Part shown: one piece after another, positions 12,082 to 55,271 of the stretch
Numbering within the stretch: the stretch's first letter is position 1
How the letters are laid out: the number at the start of each line of letters is the position of its first letter
DNA from: Candidatus Micrarchaeia archaeon
Lineage (GTDB): Archaea > Micrarchaeota > Micrarchaeia > Anstonellales > Anstonellaceae
DNA length: 64,000 nt
Reading direction: 5' to 3'
Assembly (NCBI GenBank): GCA_041665945.1
Contig: JBAYHU010000002.1
Span: forward strand, 43,350 to 107,349
The notes under the pieces: model-generated
Told to the model about the DNA's origin: nothing
The model's database searches: none
What the model saw: only the letters and a program-made list of their open reading frames with translations
Translations under genes and position numbers: made by a program

Positions 12082-13029
12082 TTATTGCTTGGATTCAAGG
12101 GAGATGTAGCGAAGTTCGGGCGCCTTTACCGGCGTTGCGAGCTTGCGAAGCGCCCTGCGCATGCGGATAAGCCGCTTGCACGGGCCTGCCACGCTTCCCT
12201 TTATCAGTATGAATTCATTCTTGAGGACGCCGTAGTGCTGGAAGCCGCCCTTGGGGTTGATTTCCTCGGGGGTGCCGACCTTCATTATCCTCTTGTTGGG
12301 CTCGGTCCTCTTGTGGTAGCCCATCTGCCCCGCCATCGGGACCGTGTAGTGAACGTAACCAGGGTGCCATGCGCCCAGCGTTCCGGTGTGCCTGCGCTTG
12401 TTGGTCGCCTTCCTGCGCTGCTGCGCTGTTCCGAATCTCTTGACCGGCCCCTGCCAGCCCTTGCCGGTAGTGATTGCAACAATGTCAACGAACTCGCCGG
12501 GCTTGAAAAGCTCGGATGCCTTCACTTCCTTGCCAACAAGCGAATTTGCGAATTCGAATTTCTCCGCCGCGTCCTTGCCGCCGACGGCGATTTCCATCCG
12601 CTCCGGCGTTTTCTTGCCGAATCCGGTCATGCCCGGGCGCGCGTAAGCGAGAACAAAAACATCGGAAACATCAGAAGCAGTGAATTTCTTTGTTGATTTC
12701 TTTGAAACGCCAAGGGGCTTGGTGATTTTCTCATCGGAGGTAATCAGGTCGCCGACGACCTTGCCGTCCTTGTATCCGCGCACGCCGAAAATCATGAGGG
12801 GCGGGCACTCGATGACGGTCGCAGAGGCGAACACCTCGTTGCCCTTTGACGGGGACTCGGTGTCATCCACCCAAGTCACGTGGGTCATGCCTGCCTTGTA
12901 GCCTGCAAACCCGAGAAGCTTCTTTTCGGTTGAAGACGGCCAGTACGATACTGCCGGCATCTGCGAAATCGCACGCTTGCGCGGGCGGAATGCGCGCGAA
13001 CCTTTCTTGTGTCCAGATCTTTTTCCCAT
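12082..13029 (-). CDS. rpl3: 50S ribosomal protein L3 (uL3)
   Basis: uL3, 315 aa. First gene of the cluster. SD GGTGA precedes the ATG. Confidence 0.95.
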   Translation of the reverse strand: MGKRSGHKKGSRAFRPRKRAISQMPAVSYWPSSTEKKLLGFAGYKAGMTHVTWVDDTESPSKGNEVFASATVIECPPLMIFGVRGYKDGKVVGDLITSDEKITKPLGVSKKSTKKFTASDVSDVFVLAYARPGMTGFGKKTPERMEIAVGGKDAAEKFEFANSLVGKEVKASELFKPGEFVDIVAITTGKGWQGPVKRFGTAQQRRKATNKRRHTGTLGAWHPGYVHYTVPMAGQMGYHKRTEPNKRIMKVGTPEEINPKGGFQHYGVLKNEFILIKGSVAGPCKRLIRMRRALRKLATPVKAPELRYISLESKQ

Positions 13030-13165
13030 GAAGTTTCACCGAAATTTTCAGGCATGGAGAATTCCATGCTGATGAAATACCCTGATTGATTGCTGTGAAA
13101 TACCCAACCAGCAATGATTCGCCATGCTTCTTTCCCTCTCGAGGAGGGGTGACGGCGAGTGTCAT

Positions 13166-13183
13166 CTTACAGCATTCTGTAAG
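13166..13183. repeat. Perfect hairpin CTTACAG-CATT-CTGTAAG in the leader region upstream of the L3 operon
   Basis: 7-bp inverted repeat with a 4-nt loop, about 140 nt upstream of the L3 start codon. Candidate r-protein autoregulatory or processing structure. Confidence 0.4.
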
Positions 13184-13210
13184 AAGCGTGGCTTGATATT
13201 GAAACAAGAG

Positions 13211-13218
13211 TTTAAAAA
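13211..13218. promoter_or_regulatory. TATA-like box TTTAAAAA between divergent L3 operon and plus-strand gene 13248
   Basis: AT-rich octamer in a GC-rich spacer. It lies about 30 nt upstream of ATG 13248, consistent with a leaderless transcript. It is near-palindromic and could also serve the L3 operon. Confidence 0.4.
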
Positions 13219-13247
13219 GGTTCCTTCAGGCGGCAAACGCCGGAGAA

Positions 13248-14807
13248 ATGGCTTTTCAGATAACTTGCTACGGGAATAAAAAACCATATGAACAGAAAAA
13301 GACACAAATTACAGGGGGGAGAATGATGGTTGACGCTAAGGAAAACAGGGTCTGGCAGTCCGAACGCGAAAAAAACGGGGAAAACCACGCTTGGAAAGAG
13401 ATTCTCGAGAGGAATATCCGCAAGATTGACTGCGAGTTGGATACTGGCGACCCGGCAACCATGCTCGTAATACAGCTCCGGGGTTCCGGCCTCAGCCTGA
13501 TGGATGTATTCGACTCCGATGTACCCCTGAAATGGTACGCGAGGCAGATGTCGATTAATTCCACTGGATATGCAAGGAGAACCGAACGCTTCCTGCAGGC
13601 GCTTGAAGCCACGCGGATGCAGTACGAGATTGCCGTTGAATTGGGAAAAAACCTGAATGAAAGATCATTCTCGGGCGACGAACAGCATTGGATGGGAGTC
13701 GCGCGCGAGTTCGTCCAGTTCGTGGAGATGGGCAGCGGGCAACCTGCCGAGGTTTTCTTCAACCCCATGTCAAGCGTGTTTTCAATCGACAAGATGGAGA
13801 ATTACTTGCGCGTTTTCCGTTTCCAAAACGACATCAAAGGAATCACCTCGTATGAATTCAAGACAGCGGTTGAAAAAACCGATTCGAGGAAAATAAAGGG
13901 AAAGGCGCAGCAAACATGTGTGGAAATTGAAGGGCAGGCAAAAACACCTGCGCGGGTTGATGTGCAGAGTGCGGATGCCGCGCCCGTAGCGAAAAACTTG
14001 GAGTTCGTGAAAAAAATGGAAGCCGCCGGGCTTGGGGCGGAAGCCCGAAAAATCCTCGCTTACCTCGAGAAAAAAAACACTACGCTTGAGAAAATAAGCG
14101 AAATTGAGCTTTGGAGGCAGTCCGTGTCCCTCTTCGAAAAGCCGCGGACCTCGTATGACAGCCAGACAGGCATAGGGATTGCGAACAAAATCATCGAAGC
14201 TGCCGGCAAGCACGCCGCGGCGGTGAGTGCGAAGGAAATGAAGCTGACTGACTGGGAAGCGGCATTCGCATGCTACATGCACGACAACTACCGCAAACGC
14301 GGCACTGCGCTCGAGGCAATCGCACACATCAAGAAAAACGGCATTTCCGAGGAGAAAATCATCTCGCTTGGTGAAAATGAGATAATCGGGCTCGTGGCAT
14401 CGATGCCGTGCGGCTACGGGTCGTCGCGGATGTATGTTGACATCGACTCCGTAAGAAAGCAGCTTCTGCGGGGAATCGAATACGCCAGCAAGGAGGAGCG
14501 AAGCCGGCTGAAGATGGAGCCCGTTGAATACCCGTGCCTTGAGCACAAGACAACCATCAGGTTCGAGGACATCGGCTCCGAGAGGCATTACCGAAGCAGG
14601 GCAGGAACCGATAACGCCGCAGGCACTGAAACGGCAAGCCAGCAATCATCCGGCGCGGGAAACGCGTATTTCGGCGGTTTGCCCAGCGGAACCACGGACG
14701 TACTGGCGCTTGTGCGGCAGAGGGACGCGGCGATAGAGAAAAGGAAAGCGTGGGAGAAGAGCCACCCTGGCGCGAACAGGAATAACGGGAAGCACCGCCG
14801 CCACTGA
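13248..14807 (+). CDS. Hypothetical protein (519 aa), no recognisable domain
   Basis: Long ORF with native codon bias. Possible alternative start at 13326, preceded by AGGGGGGAGA. C-terminal region is G/S/A-rich and basic. Confidence 0.6.
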   Translation: MAFQITCYGNKKPYEQKKTQITGGRMMVDAKENRVWQSEREKNGENHAWKEILERNIRKIDCELDTGDPATMLVIQLRGSGLSLMDVFDSDVPLKWYARQMSINSTGYARRTERFLQALEATRMQYEIAVELGKNLNERSFSGDEQHWMGVAREFVQFVEMGSGQPAEVFFNPMSSVFSIDKMENYLRVFRFQNDIKGITSYEFKTAVEKTDSRKIKGKAQQTCVEIEGQAKTPARVDVQSADAAPVAKNLEFVKKMEAAGLGAEARKILAYLEKKNTTLEKISEIELWRQSVSLFEKPRTSYDSQTGIGIANKIIEAAGKHAAAVSAKEMKLTDWEAAFACYMHDNYRKRGTALEAIAHIKKNGISEEKIISLGENEIIGLVASMPCGYGSSRMYVDIDSVRKQLLRGIEYASKEERSRLKMEPVEYPCLEHKTTIRFEDIGSERHYRSRAGTDNAAGTETASQQSSGAGNAYFGGLPSGTTDVLALVRQRDAAIEKRKAWEKSHPGANRNNGKHRRH

Positions 14808-14832
14808 ACGCATTGCGGCATTCCCGCCATAC

Positions 14833-14847
14833 TGTTTTTTATTTTCC
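14833..14847 (+). terminator. Oligo-T tract downstream of gene 13248-14807
   Basis: CTGTTTTTTATTTTCC immediately after the stop. Archaeal intrinsic-terminator-like. Confidence 0.4.
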
Positions 14848-14865
14848 TTCAGGCACTAGCGTAGC

Positions 14866-15375
14866 ATGGTGAAGAAACTCCTTGCCGTCTGCGTCTTCCT
14901 TGTTTTCCTGCTCAACTTCTGCAGCGCATACGTGCTCAACGAAAGCCGCGAGGAGATGCTTTCGTATTACCAGACCTACCTCGAGCCCAAGATTCCCAGG
15001 ACGGCAAAGGCGCTCCTTGGCGACGAGAGGATAAACGTGCAAATCGGGGGCAAGACGCTGGGGATTGCGACGAAGCGCGGCGAGCTGTCCGACTTCGAGG
15101 TGCACGCAATCGGGAATCCGACCATCGAGGTGGCGGTAAGCGACGCGGCGGCGGAGGCAATCAAGGGGAAAAAAGTGGGAATAATGCCGTGCCTTGACGA
15201 CGGAAGCATAAAAGTAAGGACGAGCAACTTCTTCACTGCGGTGAAAGTCGAGATGATGAAGAGGATTTACGCCGTTTCAGGCGCGGACGACGCGATTACG
15301 GGCAAGGCGGCGCCATCCCGCAGCATTGAATCATACAATTCCATTTACATACAGCGGGCGAAGATAACGAACTAG
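14866..15375 (+). CDS. Hypothetical secreted/membrane-anchored protein (169 aa)
   Basis: N-terminal hydrophobic signal segment KKLLAVCVFLVFLLNFCSA. Otherwise no known domain. Confidence 0.6.
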   Translation: MVKKLLAVCVFLVFLLNFCSAYVLNESREEMLSYYQTYLEPKIPRTAKALLGDERINVQIGGKTLGIATKRGELSDFEVHAIGNPTIEVAVSDAAAEAIKGKKVGIMPCLDDGSIKVRTSNFFTAVKVEMMKRIYAVSGADDAITGKAAPSRSIESYNSIYIQRAKITN

Positions 15376-15382
15376 GTGCTCC

Positions 15383-16975
15383 ATGGCGTCGGACGCATAC
15401 AGCGCGCTTGACAAGGCGTGGCGCGGAACATGCAGGGTGCTCTTCGGGCAGGAGGCGGGCGGGCTTTCGGATTGCGCCGGATGGCTTTCGGAATACGCCG
15501 AGGAAATCCGCTCGGAAAAATCCTCGATCAGCGGCAAGGCAGTGACATTCACGCAGAACGAATATTCCGGCAGCGCGCGCTTCATGGCGTTCGACGAAAT
15601 CGGATACGGGAAAAAATTCGCGCCCATCCCCCTCGACGACATGAAGGACATCGACAGCCTCGTGACGGCTGCGAAGGAGAGGCTGCAATACGCCGGAAAC
15701 GTGGTGCTGGGGCACTCAAGCGGCGTTCAGAACTCGAGCAATGTGACGGACAGCCATTATGTGCTTGATTCAACGGCGGTCGCAAGCTCCAAATACGTCG
15801 CGTACTCGAAATACATCAAGGAAAGCGAATACTGCTTCGGGGTTTTCGGCGCGGAAAAGGACGCCTATCTGGTAAAATCCATGGGAAGCTCGCTCAAGCG
15901 GTGCTTCGAATGCCACATGGTCAATTACCTGTCCGACTGCTACTACTGCGCGAAAACGCAGAACTGCCGCGAGTGCTTCTTCTGCTTCGGCATGGAAAAC
16001 GGCAGCTATGCAATCGGCAACACGCCGGTTGGCAAGGAGAAATACCTCGCGCTGAAAGCCAAGCTTCTGCCGGAAATCGCGGAAAAGATACGCAAGGACG
16101 GCAGGATATTCTCGCTTTTGAAGCTCATCGAGGAAGCCGGCGCGCACAAGCCGGATTCGAGGCTGAAGTTCGCAAAGGAGAAGGAAGCGGCATTCGATAT
16201 TGCCCCAGTGCAAAAAGGGTTTGACTCCGCCTGCCGGCTTGTCTTCGGGAAGGAAATGGGGGAGATCGGAAAGTACGAAAAATTCCTCTTCAAGCACGTG
16301 CCGAAAAACGTGGTCGTGCCATCCCCGCTGAGCGGCTCGGCGTCGGTGGTGTGCGGCTACAGGAGGCATGTGCTCAACAAATTCGAAATAGCCAGGAGGC
16401 TTCCGACGGAGGACGAGATAAGAAGCGTCGGGAAGCTTGCCGGAATGGTGAAAACGGACGTGGGCGGGATGGAGCTATCCGCGCTCGCGGAGCAGTTCCA
16501 CCCGATTGCATACACCAACCTCGACAAGGTGGCGGGCAAGTGCACGAATTTCAGGAACTGCGCCGTGATAATCGAGTCGCAGGACTGCCTCGAAGGCTCG
16601 GCTTTCGACTATTCGAAAAAATGCGGCTACAACTTCTGGGCGTCGAACGCCGAGTCCGTGTTCGGCTCCTGCGCCGCGTGGTTCTCCACATTCGTGCTCA
16701 AGAATTTCTATTCCAAGAACATGACGCGCTCGCTCGAATGCGACGGCTGCGAATCCTGCACTGACTTGTATTACTCGCACAACTGCGAGAACGTGCGCGA
16801 CTCGATGTTCTGCTTCAACGCGAAAAACCTCACAAACGCAGTGGGCAACGCGCCGCTTCCTGCGGAGCAATACAGGAAAATGAAAGGCGCGATTGTGGCG
16901 CAGCTCGCCGACGAACTGGAAAAGAAGAAGGATTTGAAGTGGGACATTTTCAATATCGGCGCTATCTCTAAGTGA
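15383..16975 (+). CDS. Cys-rich protein with internally duplicated hexad-repeat domain (530 aa)
   Basis: SD AGGTG. Two homologous halves, each with 6-residue periodic strands (x-S-x-Y-x-x turning into C-x-x-C-x-x) and ending ...MFCFNAKNLTNAVGN / ...FFCFGMENGSYAIGN. About 30 Cys. No signal peptide. No family recognised. Confidence 0.7.
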   Translation: MASDAYSALDKAWRGTCRVLFGQEAGGLSDCAGWLSEYAEEIRSEKSSISGKAVTFTQNEYSGSARFMAFDEIGYGKKFAPIPLDDMKDIDSLVTAAKERLQYAGNVVLGHSSGVQNSSNVTDSHYVLDSTAVASSKYVAYSKYIKESEYCFGVFGAEKDAYLVKSMGSSLKRCFECHMVNYLSDCYYCAKTQNCRECFFCFGMENGSYAIGNTPVGKEKYLALKAKLLPEIAEKIRKDGRIFSLLKLIEEAGAHKPDSRLKFAKEKEAAFDIAPVQKGFDSACRLVFGKEMGEIGKYEKFLFKHVPKNVVVPSPLSGSASVVCGYRRHVLNKFEIARRLPTEDEIRSVGKLAGMVKTDVGGMELSALAEQFHPIAYTNLDKVAGKCTNFRNCAVIIESQDCLEGSAFDYSKKCGYNFWASNAESVFGSCAAWFSTFVLKNFYSKNMTRSLECDGCESCTDLYYSHNCENVRDSMFCFNAKNLTNAVGNAPLPAEQYRKMKGAIVAQLADELEKKKDLKWDIFNIGAISK

Positions 16976-17038
16976 TTGAAAAACAAAGAAGGAAAACAGA
17001 AAAAGGAAAAATAAAAAGAGAAAAAACTTCCCTTAGCT
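16976..17038 (-). terminator. Polypyrimidine (T-rich) tract downstream of aEF-2
   Basis: About 60-nt polypurine run on the plus strand (AAACAAAGAAGGAAAACAGAAAAAGGAAAAATAAAAAGAGAAAAAAC), which is oligo-T-rich on the EF-2 coding strand. It fills the convergent spacer between the 15383 gene and fusA. Confidence 0.45.
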
Positions 17039-29013: not shown

Positions 29014-30474
29014 TTATCTCTTGACTCCGAGCTTTGTTACCGATTCCTCGATGTTCTTCTCGTCCTCGCCGATTGAGACCTCGCACAAAAGCGAGAGGTT
29101 CTTCACCAGCGCGCACGACGGCCCTTCAGGGGACTCGTTCGGGCAGAGCTTGCCCCAGTGCGTGCCATGCAAGTCACGCGCCTTGAAGTGCGGGTGCTTG
29201 CGGGAGAGTGGCGAGATTATCCTCCTCAAATGGGAAACTGAGGAGAGGAAGCTTGTCCTGTCAAGAAGCTGCGATACTCCGGTCTGTCCGGCAATCCAGT
29301 TGCCTGTTGCCATGGAGTAGCGGATTCTGTCGGAGAGCGCGTCAGGGCGCACGAGCGTCTGCACCGCGAGGTGCCTGCCGCGGGCGTCTGCCCTGCCTGC
29401 CTGGTAAGACACGTCTTTTACGAGGAACTGGAACGCGTAGCGGAACAGGTCCTCCATCAGGTCTCCAGTGAGCTTGATGCGCTTGTTCGCGTAGTGGTCC
29501 TTGTCGTCCTGCGGGATTTCATTGTGCGCGACCTTGATTGCGTGCTCCGCCATCTTGCAAAGGTAGCGCGCTTTCCGCATGCGGTCCTCCGCAGTCGTCC
29601 CGATGTGCGGAAGAAGGTAAGTGTCAAGGAGGATTTCTGCGCGCTTCTCGCGGTAGTCTTCAGCCTGCGAGGGCGCGGCTTTCCTTCCGAGGAAGTCGAT
29701 TGCGGACTTGCGGTCCGTTGTCGTGTCCGCCTCCATGTTGAGAAGCATGTCGTTCTTCACGTTGCGGTCGTCTGCGAAGACTGCGAGTATTTCGTTGTTC
29801 TTCTCAAGCCCGAGCGCGCGGAGAGTCGAAGTGAGCGGGAGGTCTTTTGGAGAAGCGGGGAACACGACTCTCATGAGCCCCTCGTTCGTGCGCTCGACCA
29901 CCGAGCGTGCGCGGAAGCCGAAGCGCGTGGAGAATACTTTCGCGGTGATGAGCGTGTTGTCCTTTTCGCGCGTGCACATGATGCGGTTGGGCGCAAGGTC
30001 TTCAATCGAAGTGAGAACGCGCTCGCTTCCGTTGATGATGAAATATCCGCCCGGGTCGGCAGGGTCCTCGCCCGCTTCAATCAGCTCGTCAGGGCTCATG
30101 TTGTCGAGGTAGCAGAGCTTGGATTTTACCATGACGGGCAGTTCGCCGATGAAAACTTCCGAGAAAGTCGTTTTTTCAACGCCGTTGAAAACAGGGATTA
30201 TCTCGAGGAAAATGGGTGCTGCATAAGTGAGGTTGCGGAGGCGCGCTTCCGAGGGCGTGATGGTGCGCTGCGCGCCGTCAGCCTCGATGATTTTCGGCTT
30301 CTCGAGGCGGATTTGCCCGAAGCGAAGCTCGAATCCCTCGACTGAGGGCTGGATTGTGCCGACGCGGTTGACCACCTGCTGGAGGCCGAACTCGATGAAC
30401 TTGTTGTACGAATCAAGGTGCTGTTTTACCAGGCTGTTGTCCTTGAAATATGCTGTGAGCAGTTCTCCGCGCAT
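29014..30474 (-). CDS. rpoB2: DNA-directed RNA polymerase subunit B'' (N-terminal half of Rpo2)
   Basis: Rpb2 N-terminal homology, 486 aa. Split B is a euryarchaeal/DPANN-type arrangement. Confidence 0.96.
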   Translation of the reverse strand: MRGELLTAYFKDNSLVKQHLDSYNKFIEFGLQQVVNRVGTIQPSVEGFELRFGQIRLEKPKIIEADGAQRTITPSEARLRNLTYAAPIFLEIIPVFNGVEKTTFSEVFIGELPVMVKSKLCYLDNMSPDELIEAGEDPADPGGYFIINGSERVLTSIEDLAPNRIMCTREKDNTLITAKVFSTRFGFRARSVVERTNEGLMRVVFPASPKDLPLTSTLRALGLEKNNEILAVFADDRNVKNDMLLNMEADTTTDRKSAIDFLGRKAAPSQAEDYREKRAEILLDTYLLPHIGTTAEDRMRKARYLCKMAEHAIKVAHNEIPQDDKDHYANKRIKLTGDLMEDLFRYAFQFLVKDVSYQAGRADARGRHLAVQTLVRPDALSDRIRYSMATGNWIAGQTGVSQLLDRTSFLSSVSHLRRIISPLSRKHPHFKARDLHGTHWGKLCPNESPEGPSCALVKNLSLLCEVSIGEDEKNIEESVTKLGVKR

Positions 30475-30570
30475 GGAAATTCCCTCCCTTCAGTCTCTGC
30501 GTAACCGCGCGCACATGGCGGCGCGGCGCAAGATATGGTGAATATTAACTGTGATGGCTTGCGCTGGAAT

Positions 30571-30792
30571 TCAAACGACCAGGCGGTAGCACTTGGAGTC
30601 GTCCAGCCTCGTCACTTCGACGATCTGTCCGGGCTTCGCGCCCAATCCGGCAAGCGCCGGATCCTTCGAGAATATCTTCGGAATCTGGTGTTTCGACACC
30701 CTGAAAGTGGAAAGCACTGCCTCCGCGTCCTTCGTGGAGAGGAGCTTGTGCTGCGGGATTAATTCGTGGGTTGGGGCTTCTTTATCGGGCAA
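30571..30792 (-). CDS. rpoH: DNA-directed RNA polymerase subunit H (Rpo5)
   Basis: 73 aa with an Rpb5 C-terminal-like sequence (...HELIPQHKLL...). TTG start 7 nt after AGGTG. Confidence 0.85.
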   Translation of the reverse strand: MPDKEAPTHELIPQHKLLSTKDAEAVLSTFRVSKHQIPKIFSKDPALAGLGAKPGQIVEVTRLDDSKCYRLVV

Positions 30793-30844
30793 AGTAACAC
30801 CTAACTTAGCGATACGTACGTGTAGGGCTTGTTATGAAACAAAA

Positions 30845-30852
30845 GTTTATAA
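30845..30852. promoter_or_regulatory. Palindromic TATA box TTTATAAA in the rpoH / low-GC gene divergent spacer
   Basis: Classic archaeal TATA octamer. It is 53 nt upstream of the rpoH TTG and 70 nt upstream of ATG 30923. A purine-rich BRE-like AAAAG lies on the plus side. Confidence 0.5.
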
Positions 30853-30922
30853 AGGATTCCTAATCAAGAAGGGCTCAGGAGAAACGGAATTTAAACGGCA
30901 CAAAGAAACATAGTGATATTTG

Positions 30923-31888
30923 ATGAGCACCGACAGTAAACCAGAACTAGACGCCTATCCCGGGCTTGTCTCAGACACCTTTTCCAAGATTTTTACCGCA
31001 ATGCGGCAATTTCTGGCTAGCAAGAACATCGTAATAACTCCCGAGTTTACCTTTTTCTTCGCACTAGCCGCGTACATCTTTTTAGATAACGACATAACTA
31101 ATATAGCATCCAAACTAAATACGCCTACAATCGTAATACTGACTCTTGTGGGTCTAAACCTGCTGTGGCCCAACCTCCCACAAATAAAACGCACGATTTT
31201 CAGCACTGATGAAGAAAAATTGAATAAAATACTAAAAATATGCAATGAACAGGAAGCGTTAAGCAAGTTGGGTAATTTTTTAGCAAGTAGTGGAACGGAA
31301 CTAAAAATAACCAAAAAAATATTTTCAAGAAGATTTGCAGATAACTATGAAGCATATGATTTATTTTTCAAGAATGTTAGCATGGATGAAAGCGAGGTTA
31401 ACTACCTAATACAGAGAAGAGTCATAAACAAGCCATTTTTCAACGAATTGTTGATGGAGAATTTTTTGGCTAAAACCCCTTGGACGATTTCTTATTCGAC
31501 CTATCAAAAATTAAAGCAGATCATACGAGAAAGAAACTTCTCTAGCCGCATAAGAAAATTATTCAACTACAGATATTGCAGATATAGTGATGGTTCATTA
31601 AAACAAACTGTTTTGATTCATGAACGAGAAAAAGCATATCTGATAGTCAGAAAATTACTTATGATAATGTTGGCAGCATCGGTCGCGGCGATATACATTT
31701 TTGGCGCAGTTGCGATAATTAGCGCACAGACTCCTCAAAATGCAGCCATGACTACCCAAATAGCCAATGTGGTAGAAGCTTCAGCTGCACTTTTTGCAAT
31801 AGGAATCGCTCTGCTGATCATTATTCATATTGTAAATTGGTTCATGAAACAGTTGTTCCTCCAATTCTTAGTTAAAGATACAATTTAG
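30923..31888 (+). CDS. Low-GC (about 35% GC) multi-TM hypothetical protein (321 aa), probable horizontally acquired gene
   Basis: Strong compositional contrast with the roughly 60%-GC flanks, yet the ATG is preceded by the native-type GTGATATTT-g context. About 4 TM helices (2 N-terminal, 2 C-terminal) with a soluble middle domain. No family recognised. Confidence 0.65.
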   Translation: MSTDSKPELDAYPGLVSDTFSKIFTAMRQFLASKNIVITPEFTFFFALAAYIFLDNDITNIASKLNTPTIVILTLVGLNLLWPNLPQIKRTIFSTDEEKLNKILKICNEQEALSKLGNFLASSGTELKITKKIFSRRFADNYEAYDLFFKNVSMDESEVNYLIQRRVINKPFFNELLMENFLAKTPWTISYSTYQKLKQIIRERNFSSRIRKLFNYRYCRYSDGSLKQTVLIHEREKAYLIVRKLLMIMLAASVAAIYIFGAVAIISAQTPQNAAMTTQIANVVEASAALFAIGIALLIIIHIVNWFMKQLFLQFLVKDTI

Positions 31889-31989
31889 ACTAAAGAATGA
31901 AACTAAAGGACTACACCAAACGCATTCCGCCCGGTTTAAAAACACTATTGTAGATATTCGACAACAGGTCAAGCCGGTTTTGCAGGCAG

Positions 31990-32117
31990 GCGGAAAGGCA
32001 CAGGAAAATTCGCATTAGAATATACTGGGACTGGCAACTGGGACCATCAGCAACCGGCGATTTGCCGGAAAGCGCGGGAGGCAGGGGAAAATTCGCCCTA
32101 ATATATACTGTATATGG
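31990..32117. repeat. Duplicated about 40-bp element (GGCGGAAAGGCACAGGAAAATTCGCATTAGAATATACTG / GCGGGAGGCAGGGGAAAATTCGCCCTAATATATACTG), copies about 83 bp apart
   Basis: Direct imperfect repeat in the 240-nt spacer upstream of gene 32131. Each copy ends in a TATA-like AATATATACTG. Candidate tandem promoters or regulator sites. Confidence 0.4.
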
Positions 32118-32130
32118 AAGGTGTTTTGGA

Positions 32131-32874
32131 ATGCAGGCGCACAACAGGAGAATACTGAACGAGAAATTCACGGGAAAGGTCGCATCACGGCTCGGCCTTT
32201 CCATGGAGCAGGAAGGCAGGCTCAACAGGAAGTTTTACGCTTACCACGATTTGGTGCACCCGCGCCTGAAGAAGGAGCCGACCGCGATTGACGGATGGAA
32301 ATTCATCGCAAGCGGGATGGAAAACCATGCGCCTGCGCAGCCGCACGCCGAAAACGCCCAGTTCGAGCATCTTGAGAAGGCGAAGCTGGAATTGGCTGAC
32401 GAGCTTCTCGCCATCTTAAAGGAAGCCCCGGCGAGAATCAAGGATACGAAGCTCGGGATAATCAGCGCGACTTCCGGCTTTTCCCTCGCCATAATCGGGC
32501 TTGAGGACCTTCTTGGCAAGCAGGCAGTCCGCCTGAAGCTCGACACCGCGGCAATTGCGCCGGCGGCTGAGAAAGCCGAGGGGCTCAAGAAATTCTTCAA
32601 GGGGAAGACTGCGAAACTCACGCTCGGCTCGCTTGCGGCAGGCGTGGCGGCGTTCGGAACAGGGACCGTAATCGCGATATTGCAATCCATTCCCGAGCCG
32701 GTGCCCGCAATCATGGCGGCGGGATACATTGCACTTGGCGCAATCCTCTCGGTACTGGTCGCAGTAAGGTCAAAGCATATCTACCACTCGTCAATGTTTT
32801 TGGCTTACAACCGGCAGGCAAAGGAGGCGCAAGAGGCGCAGAAGCAGGAAGGGAACACGGGAAGCAAGAATTAG
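32131..32874 (+). CDS. Hypothetical membrane protein (247 aa)
   Basis: SD AGGTG-ttttgga-ATG. Helical N-terminal domain and C-terminal TM helices. The ORF finder started 23 codons upstream. Confidence 0.6.
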   Translation: MQAHNRRILNEKFTGKVASRLGLSMEQEGRLNRKFYAYHDLVHPRLKKEPTAIDGWKFIASGMENHAPAQPHAENAQFEHLEKAKLELADELLAILKEAPARIKDTKLGIISATSGFSLAIIGLEDLLGKQAVRLKLDTAAIAPAAEKAEGLKKFFKGKTAKLTLGSLAAGVAAFGTGTVIAILQSIPEPVPAIMAAGYIALGAILSVLVAVRSKHIYHSSMFLAYNRQAKEAQEAQKQEGNTGSKN

Positions 32875-32950
32875 GATTTGACCTGCGGCATCCTGCGCAT
32901 TGCGCGCGGGCTTGCCCGATAAGGAGAACAAACAGCAGGAGCTGGTATAT

Positions 32951-34351
32951 ATGGCAGAACAGAAAACCGCGCAGCTGCGCGAGAAAGTCGTGTCCAAGAT
33001 AATCACGGTGTCGCGGAGGTTCCACTACGAGCCGCTCACGTCAGACCTTGACGAGAGGATGCCGCTTCCGAAAAACATCTCGCTCATGGCGCTGTCCTAC
33101 CTTCTCGACGGCAACCACCTCATCAAGGGCGACCCGGGATTCGGGAAAAGCACGGGCGCGAAGATAATCTCCTCGGTATTCGGCGGCGTGCCGTACGACT
33201 TGTACCACAGCCTCGAGCTTCAGGGGCATTCCGGGCAGGTGAAGGAGCACGCGGTCGGAAGGCTGGATTTCTCCACCGAATCCGCGGGCGAGAACATGAT
33301 TTGGATGGGCACGATTGCGCTGCCCGTCCTCCACGTGGACGAGGGCAACCGCCTTCCCCCGGAAACGCAGGGCGGCATATTGCAGGGGCTTGAGACCAAG
33401 CGCTGGAACTATTCCGGCAACCACACGTATTACGCCGGGCCCAAGCCCGCGTTCATCACGGTCAATTACCACGACGAGGGGACGGAACGCTTCCTACCCC
33501 CGCTTCTGGACAGGATGGACATAGTCACCGAAAACCAGTACACCGGCAGGAACAACTTCATCACCAACATGACCTACGAGCTTGCGAAAAGCGAGCGGCG
33601 CAGGCTGCTTCGCGACGATGCGATAACCAACGAGGCGATGAAGAAGCTCAACAAGAAGGGCATCGAGGAATTCGTGAAATACTGCAAGGAAAACCGCCTG
33701 AAAATGGTCGGGAAGATAACGGATGAGGAAAAGGCGGAAATATTCGCGCAGATAGACGCGGTGAGCGTTTCCAAAAAGGGCGCGGGCGGCTCGCTCGTGT
33801 CGGGCAACGACGCGCTATTGTTCCTCTCGGCATTCGACGCGGAAATCAACTGGTCGGAAAAATACGGTTCCAAGCGCTCGGCAGACACGATAAGCGACCA
33901 CAGCCACGACAGGAAATACATCGGGGTGGATGTGAAGGGCGGGTTCTCCCCGCGCTCGCTTGTCGCAGCCCTGCGCTATGCAAAGGGAGTGGCGTGGCTT
34001 TCGGGAAGGGACGAGCTTGACATCAGGGACGTCGTTGCCGTGCTTCCGCACGCAATCGCGCACAAGACCGCGTTCTCGGAGAAATTTGTGAAGGACGCCG
34101 AGGGCAGAAACGAGATGCTGGAGCTTGCGCTCGCGAGGAAGCTCGTGGGCAAGGCGCTTGAAAATTACAGGAAAGCCGCAGACGGAATCAAGGGGCTGCT
34201 TGCCAAGATACAGGAGGCGCCGCAGGAAATAATGAAGTTCGACATCGGCAAGTACGACCACCCGCTCCAAAAGTCGCTCATCTCCACTGTGAAGGACGAA
34301 TTCTCCAAGCACGAATCGTACGGCGATACCGGGCTTGAGGAAACGGTCTGA
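32951..34351 (+). CDS. MoxR-like AAA+ ATPase
   Basis: Walker A GDPGFGKS; Walker B / sensor LHVDEGNRLPPETQGGILQGLE, typical of MoxR. Long helical C-terminal extension. SD AGGAG. Confidence 0.85.
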   Translation: MAEQKTAQLREKVVSKIITVSRRFHYEPLTSDLDERMPLPKNISLMALSYLLDGNHLIKGDPGFGKSTGAKIISSVFGGVPYDLYHSLELQGHSGQVKEHAVGRLDFSTESAGENMIWMGTIALPVLHVDEGNRLPPETQGGILQGLETKRWNYSGNHTYYAGPKPAFITVNYHDEGTERFLPPLLDRMDIVTENQYTGRNNFITNMTYELAKSERRRLLRDDAITNEAMKKLNKKGIEEFVKYCKENRLKMVGKITDEEKAEIFAQIDAVSVSKKGAGGSLVSGNDALLFLSAFDAEINWSEKYGSKRSADTISDHSHDRKYIGVDVKGGFSPRSLVAALRYAKGVAWLSGRDELDIRDVVAVLPHAIAHKTAFSEKFVKDAEGRNEMLELALARKLVGKALENYRKAADGIKGLLAKIQEAPQEIMKFDIGKYDHPLQKSLISTVKDEFSKHESYGDTGLEETV

Positions 34352-34384
34352 GCCCTGCGCGGGCATTTGCAAACGGGTGCGCTG

Positions 34385-36289
34385 ATGAAATTCCTCTGGA
34401 AAAAGCAGGATGGCGTCGAACGCGGAAACGCGGGCAGCGGCGGCGCGGGCTTTTTCAAAAGGCAGATGCAGGAAAAGCCGCAGATCGAGGTGGAAAAATT
34501 CCTCTGGCAGTGGGAACTCTGCCGCGCGCTTTTCCACTCGCCGGTGCTTTCCGCGCCAAAAATGGGCGCCCCTCCCCTCGGATTTTCAGGCGCGCACCAC
34601 GACATCGCCACTGGCGAGACTTGGGTGGATGCTGAAGCGGCGCGCGGGCTTTCGGACGCCACCGGCTGCCAGTTCGAATCCGTCCTCTCAGGGCTCATGA
34701 TACGGCAGATTTCAAGCTACATGGATTTCCCGAAAAGCCTCTCAAACGCACTCATCCTCGAAAAGATGATTCTTGACTTCTGCAAGGGGGACGAGGCGAG
34801 GAACCCGGAATTTTTGCGTTTTGTTTCAATGGCATTCTCCGCGCTTGCCGCCGACGCATGCTCGGTCCTTGACCCGGAAAAGGCAAGGCACGCACTTGAG
34901 CTTCGCAGGGCAATGGCAGCGGCGAACCCCGGCGACTTGCGCCTCCAGCTGGAATACGCCTATTTGCAGTCGCAGGCAAGGCAGGACGTGAAGCCGCCCG
35001 CAGGGCTGGAGCGCGAATTTGAGAAGCTGCACACCGTTGACTTTTCCGCCGCGGGGGAAAACCACGAGGAGATGCGCCGCGCGCTGATGATATGGATGGA
35101 AATCGCGCGAAGCGTTTCGGCGCAGGAATTTTCCATGCCCGGGCGGCGGGGATTCGGGAAGGGGGCCGGCTCGAGGAAAGGATGGGGCGCTGGCAGGATG
35201 GAAGTTGTTGACTCGGACCACTCACAGTCCATTTCGCAGGCAAGCGGGCACAATCTTTCGCAGGCGCTTGCGCAGGCGGCGTCGCGCCTCTCGCGGCAGG
35301 AATTCGAAAAGGTGAGGAAAATCGCCGGCGAGATGAAAGGCGAGGGCGGCGGCGGGCATGGCGCGCAGGGAATCGGGCTGGATGAGTCGTTCAGCGGGCT
35401 TGACGTGGATGCGTCCACGGTCGAATATTATCTCACGCTCGTCAGGAATTATCCGCTGGTAATCGGCAGGGTGCCGATTGAAACCAACGGCATGCGAGAT
35501 GTCTACAAGGGGACCGAGAGGTTCACGGCTGGCTCGCCCCCGCACAGGGCAATGCCGTTCACCTCGGGCGGGAAAATACTGCCCGGAATCACGAGGATGA
35601 CCGGAATCGGAAAGAGGCACAGAAGGACCCTTGACTACGAGGTGCCAAACGCGCTGATATTGATAGACTCAAGCGACACCATGCCCGACCCGGCAACCCA
35701 AAAGTCCGCGCCGGTGGCTGCGGGGATTTCCACTGCTATTTCCTACCTCAACATGGGCGGGGAAGTGGGCGTCCTCAATTTCGGGCCGAAAAGCTGCTAT
35801 CTCCCCTTCGGGCGGGATGAAGGGCGGATATTCCTGTCCATCGTGGCAAAGCAGCACGGCGGCACGCGGATAGACGTCGGCATCGTGAAGCAGATGCTTG
35901 AGGCGCAGGGCAGCGGGCATCTTATCGAAGGCGGGCTGGACATTTCGTGCGTGCTTTCTGACCCGGCATTCGAAAAAATTGCGGCCGAGGCGGCGAAGAA
36001 GGAAGTGTCAGTTTCGACCGACGCGATAAGCCGCATTTCCGGCGCAAAGCCGGTTGACCTGTTCATATTCTCGGACATGAAGATATCCAACCTCTCCGAG
36101 CTTTTGGGGCTGGTCGAGGAGAGGGAGGGCGTGAACCGCGCCACGATAATAACAAATTCGGGCATCAGCGCGGAGGAACTCGGCGTTTCTGAGAAAATAC
36201 GCGTCTATTCCAACGTGAATGACGTGGAGCAAAGCGTGCAGATTGCGGTTGGCGAAGCCCGCAGGGCAATGGGGAACAACGGCGAGTAA
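34385..36289 (+). CDS. von Willebrand factor A (vWA) domain protein, MoxR partner
   Basis: C-terminal vWA with the MIDAS motif DSSDTM...G. Large unique N-terminal region of about 400 aa. SD GGGTG. Confidence 0.8.
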   Translation: MKFLWKKQDGVERGNAGSGGAGFFKRQMQEKPQIEVEKFLWQWELCRALFHSPVLSAPKMGAPPLGFSGAHHDIATGETWVDAEAARGLSDATGCQFESVLSGLMIRQISSYMDFPKSLSNALILEKMILDFCKGDEARNPEFLRFVSMAFSALAADACSVLDPEKARHALELRRAMAAANPGDLRLQLEYAYLQSQARQDVKPPAGLEREFEKLHTVDFSAAGENHEEMRRALMIWMEIARSVSAQEFSMPGRRGFGKGAGSRKGWGAGRMEVVDSDHSQSISQASGHNLSQALAQAASRLSRQEFEKVRKIAGEMKGEGGGGHGAQGIGLDESFSGLDVDASTVEYYLTLVRNYPLVIGRVPIETNGMRDVYKGTERFTAGSPPHRAMPFTSGGKILPGITRMTGIGKRHRRTLDYEVPNALILIDSSDTMPDPATQKSAPVAAGISTAISYLNMGGEVGVLNFGPKSCYLPFGRDEGRIFLSIVAKQHGGTRIDVGIVKQMLEAQGSGHLIEGGLDISCVLSDPAFEKIAAEAAKKEVSVSTDAISRISGAKPVDLFIFSDMKISNLSELLGLVEEREGVNRATIITNSGISAEELGVSEKIRVYSNVNDVEQSVQIAVGEARRAMGNNGE

Positions 36290-36290
36290 G

Positions 36291-37124
36291 ATGGTATCCA
36301 TGGAGCAGAAAAAAATCGATGGGGAAAAACAGCAGGCTGGCGGAAGCCCTGCGAAGCGCGCCTTCTCCCTTGCCGGGCTTTTCTCAAAACAGCAGCCAAT
36401 CGCCGAGAAACTCGCCCCGCTTGTGAAGGTGAACGAGCGCGTGCGCGAGATGGATGATGCGCTTGACGCAGCGCTTGCGGCAAAATCATACTATACCGCT
36501 GAGCGCAAGGAGGCGCTTGCGAAGATAGCCGGCATGGGGCACACTGCGGAGGACATTGCGGAATTCGCGCTTTCGCTTGGCAAATACCAGGGCAGGAAAA
36601 ATTTCGCAAACAGGGCGGGGCTTTTCCTCTCCGAGCTTTGCAATTCTTGCGCCGACAGGGCAATCACGCTGCACCTCTCGCACCTTGACACGCCGATAAA
36701 CTACCTCGGCTTCCGCAACCGCAAGGAGCTCACAGTAATCGGCAACGCAGGCAGCCACTTCGGGCAGGAAAACGAGGATGGCTCGCTTTCCCTTGAGGGG
36801 AACGCGGGCAGCTTCGCGTTCTTGCGCATGCGGGGCGGCAGCGCGAAAATCACCGGAAGCGCGCTTGACTATGCGTGCGAGGAGATGGAAAACGGGAAGG
36901 CGTCCATAGGCGGCAACGCGCGCCACCATGCAGGCAGGATGATGAGGGGCGGGCAGGCGCTTTTCAACAGGGACGTCGGCGACGCCGCGTTCGAGGAGAT
37001 GAGCGGCGGGAATGCGATAGTCCATGGGCTGGCCGGCGAAAATCCCGGGCGCGGAAGGGTTGGCGGGCACCTGACGATATACAGGAATGCGTGGAACAAC
37101 GGCAGGGCGCAGCACGGGCAATAG
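36291..37124 (+). CDS. GXGXG beta-helix repeat protein (GltB C-terminal / FwdC-like domain)
   Basis: About 19-aa repeats GNAGSxxxxxMxGGxAxIxG (GNAGSFAFLRMRGGSAKITG, GGNARHHAGRMMRGGQALFN, ...) typical of the glutamate-synthase alpha C-terminal / FwdC fold. Start is translationally coupled to the vWA stop. Confidence 0.65.
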   Translation: MVSMEQKKIDGEKQQAGGSPAKRAFSLAGLFSKQQPIAEKLAPLVKVNERVREMDDALDAALAAKSYYTAERKEALAKIAGMGHTAEDIAEFALSLGKYQGRKNFANRAGLFLSELCNSCADRAITLHLSHLDTPINYLGFRNRKELTVIGNAGSHFGQENEDGSLSLEGNAGSFAFLRMRGGSAKITGSALDYACEEMENGKASIGGNARHHAGRMMRGGQALFNRDVGDAAFEEMSGGNAIVHGLAGENPGRGRVGGHLTIYRNAWNNGRAQHGQ

Positions 37125-37173
37125 CGGTTTTTATTCGTTTTATATCAGACAAGGGCACATCGGGAATGGTTGC

Positions 37174-37956
37174 ATGGATTTCAGGCTCTGGAAAAAACCC
37201 GAAGGGAACAAAAAGTCGCCGCTATTGGAAATAATCTGCCCGCGGGCGCACAACCTGAAGTTCCCGGAAATGGAAGTGGCAATCAAAAAAGCGGTCGGGC
37301 ACGCGAAGCGAAAGATGGACTCGGACGGGGCGCCCGCAGCCGCGATACTGTTTTCCGAAGGGGAGAATTTCCGCTTCACGATAACGCAGGAGGAGGGGGC
37401 AATCTACGCGGAGAGGGTGCAAAAGCTGCTCCCCAACGGCTATTTCATCTCAGTCGCATTCAACCTTCTTGAAAGCAGCGAGCCGGACGGCGGCTACAAC
37501 GGCTGCAACAACGGCTACCTCGTTTCGCGGGAGCAGGTGCTGCACTCGCCGAAAAGGAACCTGACAACGTTCGAAAAGGATGTCGTCGGGAACATCCTCC
37601 TGCCGGAATTCCAAAAAAATTGGGAGGCGCGAACGCGGGAACTCGAGGAGAAGGGCGAGCTGTTCGGCAGCATTGATTTCGGGTTCGACCAGAGGATGGA
37701 GCACAGGATTTGCGCGGATGTGTGCCAGTCGCCGATATATTTCGAGCCGCAGACAATCACGCTTGTTTCGGCAGGCGGCAACCAGGTCTCGTATTACAAC
37801 AGGCTGGCGGGAAACCGGATGGCGGTTGTCACCAACGACTCGACAAAGCCCGAGCCCGTGGTCTATAAGCGGGAGGGCACGGTTTGGGGCATAAAGGCGC
37901 TGGAGGGGTTCCACATGCTGTCCGTGTTCGAAAATCCGGCTAATCCGCAACTTTGA
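37174..37956 (+). CDS. Hypothetical protein (260 aa)
   Basis: In an operon-like arrangement after the GXGXG gene. No recognisable motif. Confidence 0.55.
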   Translation: MDFRLWKKPEGNKKSPLLEIICPRAHNLKFPEMEVAIKKAVGHAKRKMDSDGAPAAAILFSEGENFRFTITQEEGAIYAERVQKLLPNGYFISVAFNLLESSEPDGGYNGCNNGYLVSREQVLHSPKRNLTTFEKDVVGNILLPEFQKNWEARTRELEEKGELFGSIDFGFDQRMEHRICADVCQSPIYFEPQTITLVSAGGNQVSYYNRLAGNRMAVVTNDSTKPEPVVYKREGTVWGIKALEGFHMLSVFENPANPQL

Positions 37957-38341
37957 ATTCCGCTTTCTTGCTGTTTGAGAAGTAGCATGCCACGTCTTTC
38001 ATCCCGTAGGGCGCGGCTGCGATGAAGTTTATTCCTCCTTTTTTCGAAAAAAGCCGCAAATCCTGCCGCGAGGGGAGTATGTTGCCGTTCGGGTGCGAGT
38101 GGAAGCTCCCGACAACGCCGTCAAGCAGGGGCATCATCCAGTCGTCGAACATGGACGCGCCCCTTGACACGGAAATGCCGGGCGGGATGATCGTGCCATC
38201 TATTACTATATTAGTAGTGTTATCCGCGCCATCCTCGCGCTCACCAGTAAGAAGGCAGATGAACTCGTTTGGGTAAGCCGCCTTCGCGCCGGCGAGCGCG
38301 GAGAGCAGGGCTTGCCTCTTGATGATGATTTCCATAAACAT
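37940..38341 (-). CDS. JAB/MPN (JAMM) metalloprotease, deubiquitinase-like
   Basis: Exact JAMM motif E...HSHPNGNILPSRQD (H-x-H-x7-S-x2-D) with an upstream Glu (LTGE). About 134 aa. Convergent with the MoxR cluster; the two overlap by 17 nt. Confidence 0.8.
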   Translation of the reverse strand: MFMEIIIKRQALLSALAGAKAAYPNEFICLLTGEREDGADNTTNIVIDGTIIPPGISVSRGASMFDDWMMPLLDGVVGSFHSHPNGNILPSRQDLRLFSKKGGINFIAAAPYGMKDVACYFSNSKKAEFKVAD

Positions 38342-38497
38342 GAACCACGTGAATGTTTTGGAAAGCCGGTGCGACAGCACCAGATTGCCATGATGGGATT
38401 TCCGCGCCAACAATTAAGAAGAGCATGACGCAGAAGAAGCTTCGCAGATGATGACGGATGTGATCTCCGAGGCGAAATCGCCGTTGACGAAAGACGG

Positions 38498-53276: not shown

Positions 53277-53864
53277 ATGAACAAGAACGAAACGCGCACG
53301 GAAAACGCTGCAAAACAGGCGGCAAACGACACCGAGCACTCGCAGTCGAACCTCGTGCCCGGGCAGGAGGATGCGGAAAAGGAGCTTTCGGAAACGACTG
53401 ACCGACTGCTTCGCCTGACGGCGGAATTCGACAATTACAAGAAGCGGACGGCAAAGGAGAAGGAGCAGCTCGCGATTCATGCCGAAGGGAAGCTCATGCT
53501 CCAGTTCCTCCCGATTTACGAGGAAATTGCGCTTGCGGAAAAGGAAGCGGCAAAGGTGAAGGAAGAGGCGGTGCGCGAGGGAGTGCTGATGGTGCTCTCC
53601 AAACTGCGCGCGGCGTTCGAGAAGGAAGGCTTGCAGGAAATGAAGCTCGACGGCGAGAAATTCGACCCGTACCGCCACGAAGTCGCGCTTCGCGAGGAGT
53701 CGGACGCGCCGGAAGGCGAGATTGTGAGGGTAATACAGAAAGGGTATTTGTTCAAGGGCGCCGTGCTGCGGCACGCGATTGTTTCCGTTTCAAGCGGAAA
53801 AAAGGCAAGCGGGATGAAAAAAGCGGATGATGCTGACGAAAAAACCGAACCGGAGAAAGAGTGA
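53277..53864 (+). CDS. grpE: Nucleotide exchange factor GrpE
   Basis: ...LLRLTAEFDNYKKRTAKEKEQ... is a GrpE signature. 195 aa. Confidence 0.9.
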   Translation: MNKNETRTENAAKQAANDTEHSQSNLVPGQEDAEKELSETTDRLLRLTAEFDNYKKRTAKEKEQLAIHAEGKLMLQFLPIYEEIALAEKEAAKVKEEAVREGVLMVLSKLRAAFEKEGLQEMKLDGEKFDPYRHEVALREESDAPEGEIVRVIQKGYLFKGAVLRHAIVSVSSGKKASGMKKADDADEKTEPEKE

Positions 53865-54206: not shown

Positions 54207-54219
54207 GAAGGCGATGACC

Positions 54220-55257
54220 ATGGCTATCGATGAAGAAAAAATTCTCAAGAATACCGATGCATACACGGCAGTTATGTTCGGAGGCTTGTTCGGCGCGTTT
54301 GTAGGAATAATTTTTTCTCTGTTCATTCTTCCATTTACACTTAGGGGCACTGATGGAAGAATAATGTATTTTGCAACTGAAACTCCTATGACTTTGCCTT
54401 TGCAATTCGACCAATGGCAGGTGTTTGTACTTGGAATGTTTCTAGTGTTTTTAGTGTTGTTTGCAGTAATGGCTACGATATTTCAAACACTCCTAAGATG
54501 GAAAAGCAATGCGCTTAAGGACGTAAAATTGCCTGCAGAATACATCAAAAAGAACATTTACTGGATAGTTGGCATAGGTCTTTTGGTTTCCTTTGGAATA
54601 GTAGGTTGGGACTCCACAAAAATTATCGCCCTATCTACTGTCGCATACACTCTGATGACGATGTTGTTAGTTCTAGAGAATAAAGCGATGAGAGAAGCGC
54701 AGACAGAACCTAGAATGTCAGTATATCTAAAACCAAGAGAAGAATCGATAAATCTGATGGATTTGAATGTTGAAAATATCGGTATGGGGCCTGCCTTTGA
54801 CATCAATTTTAAGATAGAACCAGATTTTGCCTGCATGGGAACCGGTAATCTTTCAACGATACTAAACAAGATAGCGTATCTCACACCGAAAAATACTAGG
54901 AGCGTATTCCTCACTAGCATGCTGGACAACTTTGAAGAAAAAAAGAAGACAAAACTTCTCGTTAAAGTTAGTTATAAAGATAAAAACGGAAAGCAATACA
55001 CAGAAGAATTTACCTTAGATTTCTCTGAATTCGTAGGACTAACCCAGATAGGGAAACCGCCTCTTCATGAAATAGCAGATAATACTGAGAAAATTAGTAA
55101 GGCAATTGAGGGCATACTCTCGAGTTCTGATAGTTTCAGAAAGCCAGAGATTATCGTAACAACAAGAAAAGAGATTGCAGATGAGCGCCAAAAATTAACA
55201 AAGGAAATGAAAAAGAAATTTGAAGCACAGAAGAAAGAGAAACAAAATAATGTTTGA
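54220..55257 (+). CDS. Low-GC (about 38%) membrane protein (about 345 aa) inserted between grpE and dnaK
   Basis: Marked AT-richness relative to its flanks. Four TM helices, then a K/E-rich soluble domain. Its stop is immediately followed by the dnaK SD. Confidence 0.6.
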
Positions 55258-55271
55258 AAAAGGTGATTGGA

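Follow-up and report, generated by a model that had tools for sequence, protein, structure and literature searches.

A compositionally foreign single-gene islet, probably acquired horizontally, beside the RNA polymerase operon of a Micrarchaeia archaeon

Introduction

Archaeal integrative elements carry tyrosine integrases and include integrated plasmids and proviruses that target tRNA genes. Superinfection exclusion at the inner membrane is the task of proteins such as HK97 gp15, lactococcal Sie2009 and P22 SieA; the known examples of this type are all bacterial. Here we describe orf321, an AT-rich gene for a 321-residue membrane protein that lies against the RNA polymerase operon in a 64,000-nt stretch of DNA from Candidatus Micrarchaeia archaeon, an uncultured DPANN archaeon. 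We refer to the whole stretch as the window (background GC ~0.56) and number positions along it. The best explanation overall, which we consider probable, is that ~1.1 kb (~30870-31965) came in by horizontal transfer as a single-gene islet, at the rpoH-proximal edge of a hot spot of gene flux between a Prok-JAB gene and rpoH. The type of event, horizontal gain of an accessory gene in a compositionally foreign islet, is ordinary and known; what is new is the family and the finding that its members recur as AT-rich inserts in different archaeal phyla.

Results

A single AT-rich gene next to rpoH

The RNA polymerase genes form a minus-strand cluster, rpoH-rpoB''-rpoB'-rpoA'-rpoA'', with rpoH first, and orf321 lies divergently on the plus strand (Table 1), beside rpoH as the initial annotation of this DNA had it. 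Its product is the NCBI entry 'hypothetical protein WCT52_01675 [Candidatus Micrarchaeia archaeon]'. Maximum-likelihood two-boundary segmentation identifies 30791-31965 as the best low-GC segment (GC 0.369 against the background of 0.56), within which 100-nt windows reach a minimum of 0.27. The GC is 0.369 at 31001-32000 and 0.318 at 31200-31599, whereas the 1-kb bins on either side have 0.53-0.61. The coding sequence of orf321 (GC 0.37) has a z-score of -4.87 against all 966-nt windows, the lowest value in the 64 kb. Its GC at third codon positions (GC3) is 0.39, compared with 0.66-0.81 in 21 neighbouring genes, and a codon adaptation index-like (CAI-like) value, calculated with an index built from the neighbouring genes, is again the lowest (0.336, neighbours 0.56-0.78). 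The low-GC island first noticed in the sequence is therefore the most extreme of the window, and the sliding-window GC and codon-adaptation check that had been proposed for it gives a large deviation in GC, GC3 and CAI-like index alike. The low GC is not a by-product of coding for a membrane protein, because GC3 is 0.72 in the adjacent membrane-protein gene orf247.

The same numbers bear on a different origin, that of a long-resident gene in which selection maintains the low GC, either for an I/K/N/F-rich membrane protein or for AT-rich DNA in regulation, and whose patchy distribution reflects loss. A GC3 of 0.39 is not extremely low, as such a history would allow, but it leaves the synonymous sites of orf321 far from the host equilibrium. 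We consider a resident origin very unlikely, also in view of the relatives and homologs described below.

An empty site in relatives

Relatives were collected in a one-genome-per-species scan with RpoB'', which gave 80 loci, the closest at 86-88% RpoB'' identity. None of orf321, orf247, the AAA protein and the VWA-like protein of the window (Table 1) occurs within 10 kb of rpoH in these 80 loci, and a family-profile search of 107 collected loci (1.57 Mb) finds no further member of the orf321 family. In L004, L027 and the metagenomic locus L095 the site is empty, with a Prok-JAB gene 92-161 nt upstream of rpoH and in the same direction. The comparison of rpoH upstream regions suggested in the initial annotation thus yields no ortholog and three clean JAB-rpoH junctions, a pattern that speaks against a resident gene. 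An RpoH-anchored metagenome scan recovered no contig of the same species lacking the islet; the one JAB-rpoH junction that it did recover belongs to a further related species.

In the window, six plus-strand genes (7.1 kb unshared with relatives) separate the JAB gene from rpoH, and only the first, orf321, is AT-rich. The island as initially delimited is real as an AT-rich gene, but it is only the rpoH-proximal gene of a larger unshared region. The interval of L005 is filled differently, with a 622-residue open reading frame (ORF) and a weak homolog of the 260-residue gene of the window. The JAB-rpoH interval is a hot spot of gene flux and the AT-rich gene is its outermost occupant. Since the other five genes are native in composition, orf321 probably came in separately from them and in a later event.

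A rare family of AT-rich inserts

The product of orf321 had been described as an orphan. This holds in curated collections and in word-indexed searches, with a single sequence or with the family profile, which return only the protein itself or members already known. An exhaustive phmmer search of 1.84 billion cluster representatives, in contrast, gives seven matches, self included; the six others (E = 5e-31 to 1.5e-4) represent five genes, the two halves of a split copy (P0006 and P0007, locus L093) being counted once. The five remote relatives are 22-31% identical to orf321, collinear over the full length (315-328 residues) and built on the same hairpin-domain-hairpin plan. The family is patchy across distant lineages: Micrarchaeia, Aenigmarchaeota, Methanoregula and an archaeon of 22% GC. 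The database check of the product thus has two outcomes, no significant match among curated families and folds, and a place in a rare archaeal family by phmmer. We found nothing on this family in the literature. Scans of IMG/VR with three members and tblastn searches of phage and plasmid collections give no relatives.

The Aenigmarchaeota homolog (P0004, QQG39673.1; locus L085) is encoded in a complete 875-kb genome (CP066684.1). The gene has a GC of 0.39 against 0.54 and sits in a low-GC block, with a tyrosine integrase (Phage_integrase) four genes upstream; no att (attachment site) repeats were found around this element. A 233-residue gene downstream of the homolog was considered as a counterpart of orf247 and rejected, the sequences having no visible resemblance. 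The Methanoregula homolog (P0005; locus L088) lies on contigs whose PhzF shares a 90% cluster with the PhzF of Methanoregula boonei 6A8. Here the gene forms a sharp single-gene island (GC 0.276 against 0.56-0.62), a pattern seen in five Methanoregula-like contigs, and the L088 contig is collinear with the M. boonei 6A8 chromosome (91% and 83% identity) save for 4 kb that 6A8 lacks, an indel within which the gene lies. The L088 homolog is preceded by an 800-nt non-coding stretch (2425-3235 of L088) rich in G- and C-runs, which contains two copies of a ~60-nt unit (…CCGGCCCGGAACGACCCNCCTTATCAAAAATGATAATCTT…), the second just upstream of the homolog; this repeat may be linked to the 4-kb indel.

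Of the remaining copies, P0003 (L084) starts 23 nt past the 3' end of a tRNA gene (Rfam tRNA, 37.4 bits) that is truncated where the contig stops. The contig with P0002 is 12.8 kb long, and the genes near P0002 include PIN/MazE, TrmB and an SMC_N/AAA_15/AAA_23 ATPase. P0006 and P0007 (4823-5779 of L093) are one gene split by a single in-frame TGA (…AACTCATGAGTGCTT…) on an archaeal contig (eIF-1A) that has a GC of 0.22 throughout, which makes this the only family copy at native composition; the split could be a pseudogene, read-through or a sequencing error. Neighbours differ at every homolog locus, and there is no conserved operon partner.

The gene is thus an AT-rich accessory insert in all three GC-rich hosts where gene and flanks can be read, and two family loci bear classical hallmarks of mobility. 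Together with the local evidence, this supports acquisition of orf321 from a low-GC donor pool. That every copy in a GC-rich host is AT-rich despite 22-31% identity could also mean that the composition is intrinsic to the family, as a resident gene would require. Against this stand the native-composition copy in the 22%-GC genome, the strain-specific indel that holds the Methanoregula copy and the integrase-linked low-GC block around the Aenigmarchaeota copy.

Assembly support and the case for acquisition

Misjoining of a low-GC fragment into the Micrarchaeia contig during assembly or binning is an extremely improbable source of the islet. An ENA k141 contig of 239 kb (L001; 3 mismatches in 20,966 nt) and a Logan contig of 9 kb (L002; 0 mismatches), which come from different pipelines, both read through the two junctions, and their sequences are essentially the same. 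The gene is intact with a well-placed Shine-Dalgarno (SD) sequence, and the same island pattern recurs in the complete Aenigmarchaeota genome and the five Methanoregula-like contigs. The 1.6-kb JGI contig Ga0376277_0351852 (L003; approximately window 30899-32442) covers the gene and the right junction with two substitutions and a scaffold gap. It starts ~25 nt before the orf321 ATG, near the left junction, and has an N run at 31932-31939, near the right edge; these breaks hint at trouble in the assembly graph, and strain heterogeneity may lie behind them, or low coverage around the junctions.

Horizontal acquisition of orf321, proposed in the initial annotation from composition, is well supported: composition deviates strongly, and no ortholog exists in the 10-kb rpoH flanks of the 80 related loci. 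The gene has the deviant composition and codon usage, the absence from relatives and the patchy distribution of an islet gene; mobility signatures are missing at the locus. In such a scheme orf321 would travel as cargo of low-GC archaeal integrative elements, and the copy in the window would be either a remnant left after loss of mobility functions or the product of entry by illegitimate recombination.

Several points weigh against the acquired islet. Integrase and transposase genes are absent, as had been noted at first reading; none is found within +/-10 kb, and tblastn finds no integrase remnant in the window. The window has no tRNA gene, and an Rfam search of 30400-32400 gives nothing. Flanking direct repeats, which the initial annotation proposed to look for near 30800 and 32000, did not materialize; neither for the islet nor for the 7.1-kb region do candidate att repeats or target-site duplications score better than those of shuffled sequence. 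For the route of entry of the window copy, the integrase and the tRNA 3' end at homologs are leads, and the closest relative, with 31% identity at most, is too distant to name a donor. The GC3 of orf321 (0.39) is higher than that of the Methanoregula and L084 copies (0.20-0.23), which could indicate partial amelioration (the transfer is then perhaps not recent) or a different donor. Lastly, the three assemblies L001, L002 and L003 may come from related samples. A 17-nt inverted similarity between 30879-30895 and 37952-37968 (uncorrected p ~0.01) was judged to be due to chance; the match requires a gap, and on the JAB side it lies in conserved codons for the C-terminus of that protein.

The left junction and the signals before orf321

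The block CTTTATAAACTTTTnnnnCATAAC...GGTTAGGTGTTACT-TTG upstream of rpoH is conserved in five related Micrarchaeota (L004, L005, L027, L094 and L095) in an alignment of the upstream regions. The palindromic TATA box TTTATAAA at 30846-30853, which had been described as shared by orf321 and rpoH, is indeed present; because of this conservation we assign it to the native rpoH promoter and not to the island, and its use in the opposite direction for orf321 is putative. The rpoH leader also has an SD-like TTAGGTG at ~30800-30806 (reverse complement). Similarity to L027 runs ~12 nt past the rpoH TATA box and then stops. As homology to relatives ends just past this box, we place the left junction at ~30868-30880, which gives a foreign segment of ~1.1 kb.

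Within the foreign segment a candidate promoter, the B recognition element (BRE)/TATA-like GAAACGGAATTTAAAC, precedes the orf321 ATG. Homologs carry TATA-like boxes ~15-40 nt before their own ATG, and as the spacing in orf321 matches theirs, we think that orf321 arrived with its own promoter. Transcription from this box, ~27 nt upstream of the ATG, would start at ~30920, ~25 nt past the AATTTAAA box, and translation would be initiated via the GTGAT SD sequence. An 8-9-mer of GTGATATTT also stands directly before the native starts of S3 (9223, minus strand), L22 (9830, minus strand) and rpoB' (28994, minus strand), which bears out the native-type ribosome-binding context reported earlier. An initiation context identical to that of native genes would suit a resident gene. 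GTGAT matches the universal archaeal anti-SD sequence, however, and the native-type context is therefore no argument against a foreign origin.

Predicted architecture of the orf321 product

The transmembrane (TM)/soluble/TM architecture described from the sequence is borne out by hydropathy and by an AlphaFold2 model. The TM segments (approximately residues 36-58, 66-86, 248-266 and 286-304) form two hairpins with a soluble stretch of ~160 residues between them. These central 160 residues contain 30 K/R against 18 D/E, and most homologs are basic there too. By hydropathy and the positive-inside rule, the N- and C-termini and the central domain are predicted to be cytoplasmic, and two short loops to lie outside. 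The AlphaFold2 model of the full-length protein (alignment of five members) has a predicted local distance difference test (pLDDT) score of 72.7, with 84-93 for residues 100-220. Modelled alone (residues 92-229, six sequences), the domain scores pLDDT 91.1 with a predicted template modelling score (pTM) of 0.84, and is all-helical, with nine helices arranged as three triplets.

Foldseek searches of PDB and BFVD with the full and domain models give no match with E < 0.1. The nearest folds for the central domain are designed armadillo and helical-repeat proteins (TMq 0.40-0.51), at E >= 0.19 and so not significant. The best Pfam scores for orf321 (15.2 and 13.5 bits) are under the cut-offs of 24 and 27, with no match to a Pfam repeat. 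NCBIfam gives no match, PHROGs nothing better than E > 0.05, PADLOC none at E up to 0.1, and a PDB sequence profile search nothing. The residues invariant in the family, G14, F42, N84, N141, K170, L177, Y218 and Y221, form no recognizable catalytic motif. From the models we describe the product as a membrane-tethered basic three-repeat armadillo (ARM)-like alpha-solenoid, which would be a scaffold rather than an enzyme and would bind a cytoplasmic protein or nucleic acid.

Possible function

We tentatively assign orf321 an accessory role, either to the advantage of a mobile element or in protection of the host. The likeliest form, itself only a possibility, is membrane-level exclusion of, or interference with, incoming elements through a cytoplasmic partner or nucleic acid. 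The only basis for this preference is the architecture, the carriage by mobile elements and loose hints from gene neighbourhoods (PIN/MazE and SMC_N/AAA_15 near P0002, integrase cargo in L085). It is weakened by the lack of a significant match in PADLOC, Pfam, PHROGs, NCBIfam, PDB and BFVD, and of relatives in the IMG/VR, phage and plasmid sets.

The initial annotation was reminded of abortive-infection or toxin-like genes. In such an effector the cytoplasmic domain would sense infection, upon which the hairpins would make a pore in the membrane or disrupt it, and the gene would be kept as a stand-alone defence or addiction gene. Membrane hairpins with a sensor-like cytoplasmic domain are compatible with this, as are the PIN/MazE and SMC_N/AAA_15/AAA_23 ATPase genes near P0002 and the position in a variable region adjoining a MoxR-like AAA/VWA-like cassette, the first gene of which weakly matches a PADLOC 2TM effector (E = 0.0015). 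No family member has a PADLOC, Pfam or PHROG match, though, and none of the comparisons, NCBIfam and folds included, speaks in favour of the idea. The islet holds no antitoxin or small partner ORF, its other ORFs being antisense and inside orf321; the homolog loci have no operon partner in common, and the neighbours at L085 have no PADLOC match. We regard an abortive-infection or toxin effector as unlikely and keep exclusion or interference at the membrane as the preferred role.

The downstream flank

A duplicated 40-bp element had been reported downstream of orf321, and two ~40-nt copies are present, 81% identical over 32 nt (31996-32027 and 32079-32110; ~40 nt when extended by eye). The window contains the 25-nt core two times, against 0 expected by chance. 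The pair was rejected as att sites; both copies are downstream of the islet, entirely within DNA of native GC. Copy 2 sets a TAATATATA box ~28 nt before the ATG of orf247, and we therefore read the element as a probable tandemly duplicated promoter or operator of orf247, copy 2 being its likely promoter. The description of orf247 as another orphan membrane-protein gene stands in so far as it has hydrophobic C-terminal segments and no family match beyond the weak 2TM effector hit; its composition is native. The five-gene cassette of native GC that begins with orf247 (32131-37956) may be a system of the MoxR-VWA type.

Table 1. Features of the JAB-rpoH interval, its flanks and the second AT-rich islet (positions in the window).
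Feature	Position	Strand	Remarks
rpoH (RNA polymerase subunit H/Rpb5)	30571-30792	-	ORF, TTG start, Pfam RNA_pol_Rpb5_C; GC 0.57, GC3 0.74; native left flank
Native rpoH leader and promoter	30793-30868	-	Conserved in relatives
Foreign AT-rich islet, ~1.1 kb	30870-31965	.	Probable; right edge from GC change-point, left junction within 30868-30880
Candidate orf321 promoter, BRE/TATA-like GAAACGGAATTTAAAC	30881-30899	+	~27 nt before ATG; putative
SD-like GTGAT and ATTT spacer (GTGATATTT)	30913-30921	+	Before ATG 30923
orf321, 321 residues	30923-31888	+	ORF; 4 TM (two hairpins) and central basic helical-repeat domain of ~140 residues (predicted); rare uncharacterized archaeal family
Duplicated element, copy 1, ~40 nt	31989-32027	+	Core GGAAAATTCGCATTAGAATATACTG; native-type GC
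Duplicated element, copy 2, ~40 nt	32072-32110	+	TAATATATA box centred ~28 nt before ATG 32131; from sequence
orf247, hypothetical	32131-32874	+	C-terminal hydrophobic segments (by eye); GC 0.57, GC3 0.72, native
Rest of unshared region	32900-37956	+	Native GC; profile matches: AAA (MoxR/AAA_5-like, AAA_lid_2), 483 residues; 634-640 residues, faint VWA; 274 residues, GXGXG/FwdC-like; 260 residues
Prok-JAB ortholog	37940-38410	-	Far edge of variable region; directly upstream of rpoH in L004, L027 and L095
orf347, second single-gene AT-rich islet	54214-55257	+	347-residue multi-TM protein; GC 0.36-0.39, CAI-like 0.357

Other features of the window and of the relatives

The second AT-rich islet of the window, orf347, is wedged between grpE (53277-53864, followed by a 110-residue ORF) and dnaK (55254-57155, 4-nt overlap). 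Its few homologs match the C-terminal half only, and one of them (P0033, L104) adjoins a YopA-like gene and a defence-type ATPase (PADLOC HEC-03B/NsnB/AriA, E = 9e-75). That orf321 and orf347 are paralogs was rejected, as they have no similarity. Two smaller dips in GC are found in the window, 0.39 at 57150-57449, just after dnaK, and 0.49 at 13001-14000, with a strand switch near 13 kb.

Among the relatives at 86-88% RpoB'' identity, the GC over the fetched loci is 0.43 (L005) and ~0.50 (L004, L027), compared with 0.56 for the window, a spread that points to fast compositional drift in this Micrarchaeota clade. In L005 the ORF matching rpoA'' (16209-18638) has 810 residues, only 506-810 of which align with the 333-residue RpoA'' of the window; rpoA' is covered by other frames at 13282-15891. 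An insertion (an intein, for example) or a fusion would account for this.

Discussion

The islet is a well-bounded gene gain in a reduced DPANN genome, directly abutting the RNA polymerase operon promoter, and it defines a rare, uncharacterized archaeal family with two TM hairpins and a basic helical-repeat domain for which no fold relative was detected. Such inserts recur, and the window has a second, unrelated islet; the two observations point towards a low-GC donor pool that has not been sampled and may comprise viruses, plasmids or other DPANN archaea. Both islets are candidates for the study of gene exchange and membrane-level interactions in DPANN archaea. A bolder proposal, to which we give little credence, is that the family marks an unrecognized low-GC mobile element or virus lineage that crosses archaeal phyla (the DPANN lineages Micrarchaeia, Aenigmarchaeota and the 22%-GC archaeon, and the methanogen Methanoregula) and leaves single AT-rich membrane-protein genes beside core housekeeping genes, in the window at rpoH and between grpE and dnaK. 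If this were true, the islets would record gene traffic between episymbiotic DPANN cells and their potential hosts, and the orf321 protein would be a new membrane-tethered alpha-solenoid for interaction between element and host or symbiont and host.

How does the locus compare with known systems? At the level of the protein, the resemblance to Armadillo/HEAT alpha-solenoids is one of fold class only (E >= 0.19) and the domain of orf321, unlike theirs, sits between two TM hairpins; the likeness lies in the prediction (pLDDT 91) of nine helices as three triplets. With the superinfection-exclusion proteins orf321 has no detectable similarity of sequence or fold, but it shares with them a small, membrane-anchored product, the bulk of which is predicted to be cytoplasmic, and the character of a stand-alone accessory gene of a mobile element.

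At the level of the genome, no defining part of an archaeal integrative element is present in the window, nor were att repeats found even in L085, yet the Aenigmarchaeota homolog is four genes away from a Phage_integrase in a low-GC block, and a second family member begins close to the 3' end of a tRNA gene. Genomic islets and prophage morons differ from our locus in that an element backbone, an att site and an integrase are missing here, the host is a DPANN archaeon and the family is absent from the IMG/VR, phage and plasmid sets. They are alike in consisting of a single gene of atypical GC with its own promoter-like box, absent from close relatives and placed in a variable hot spot, and the likeness extends to the homologs of orf321, linked as they are with an integrase in one case and with a tRNA 3' end in another.

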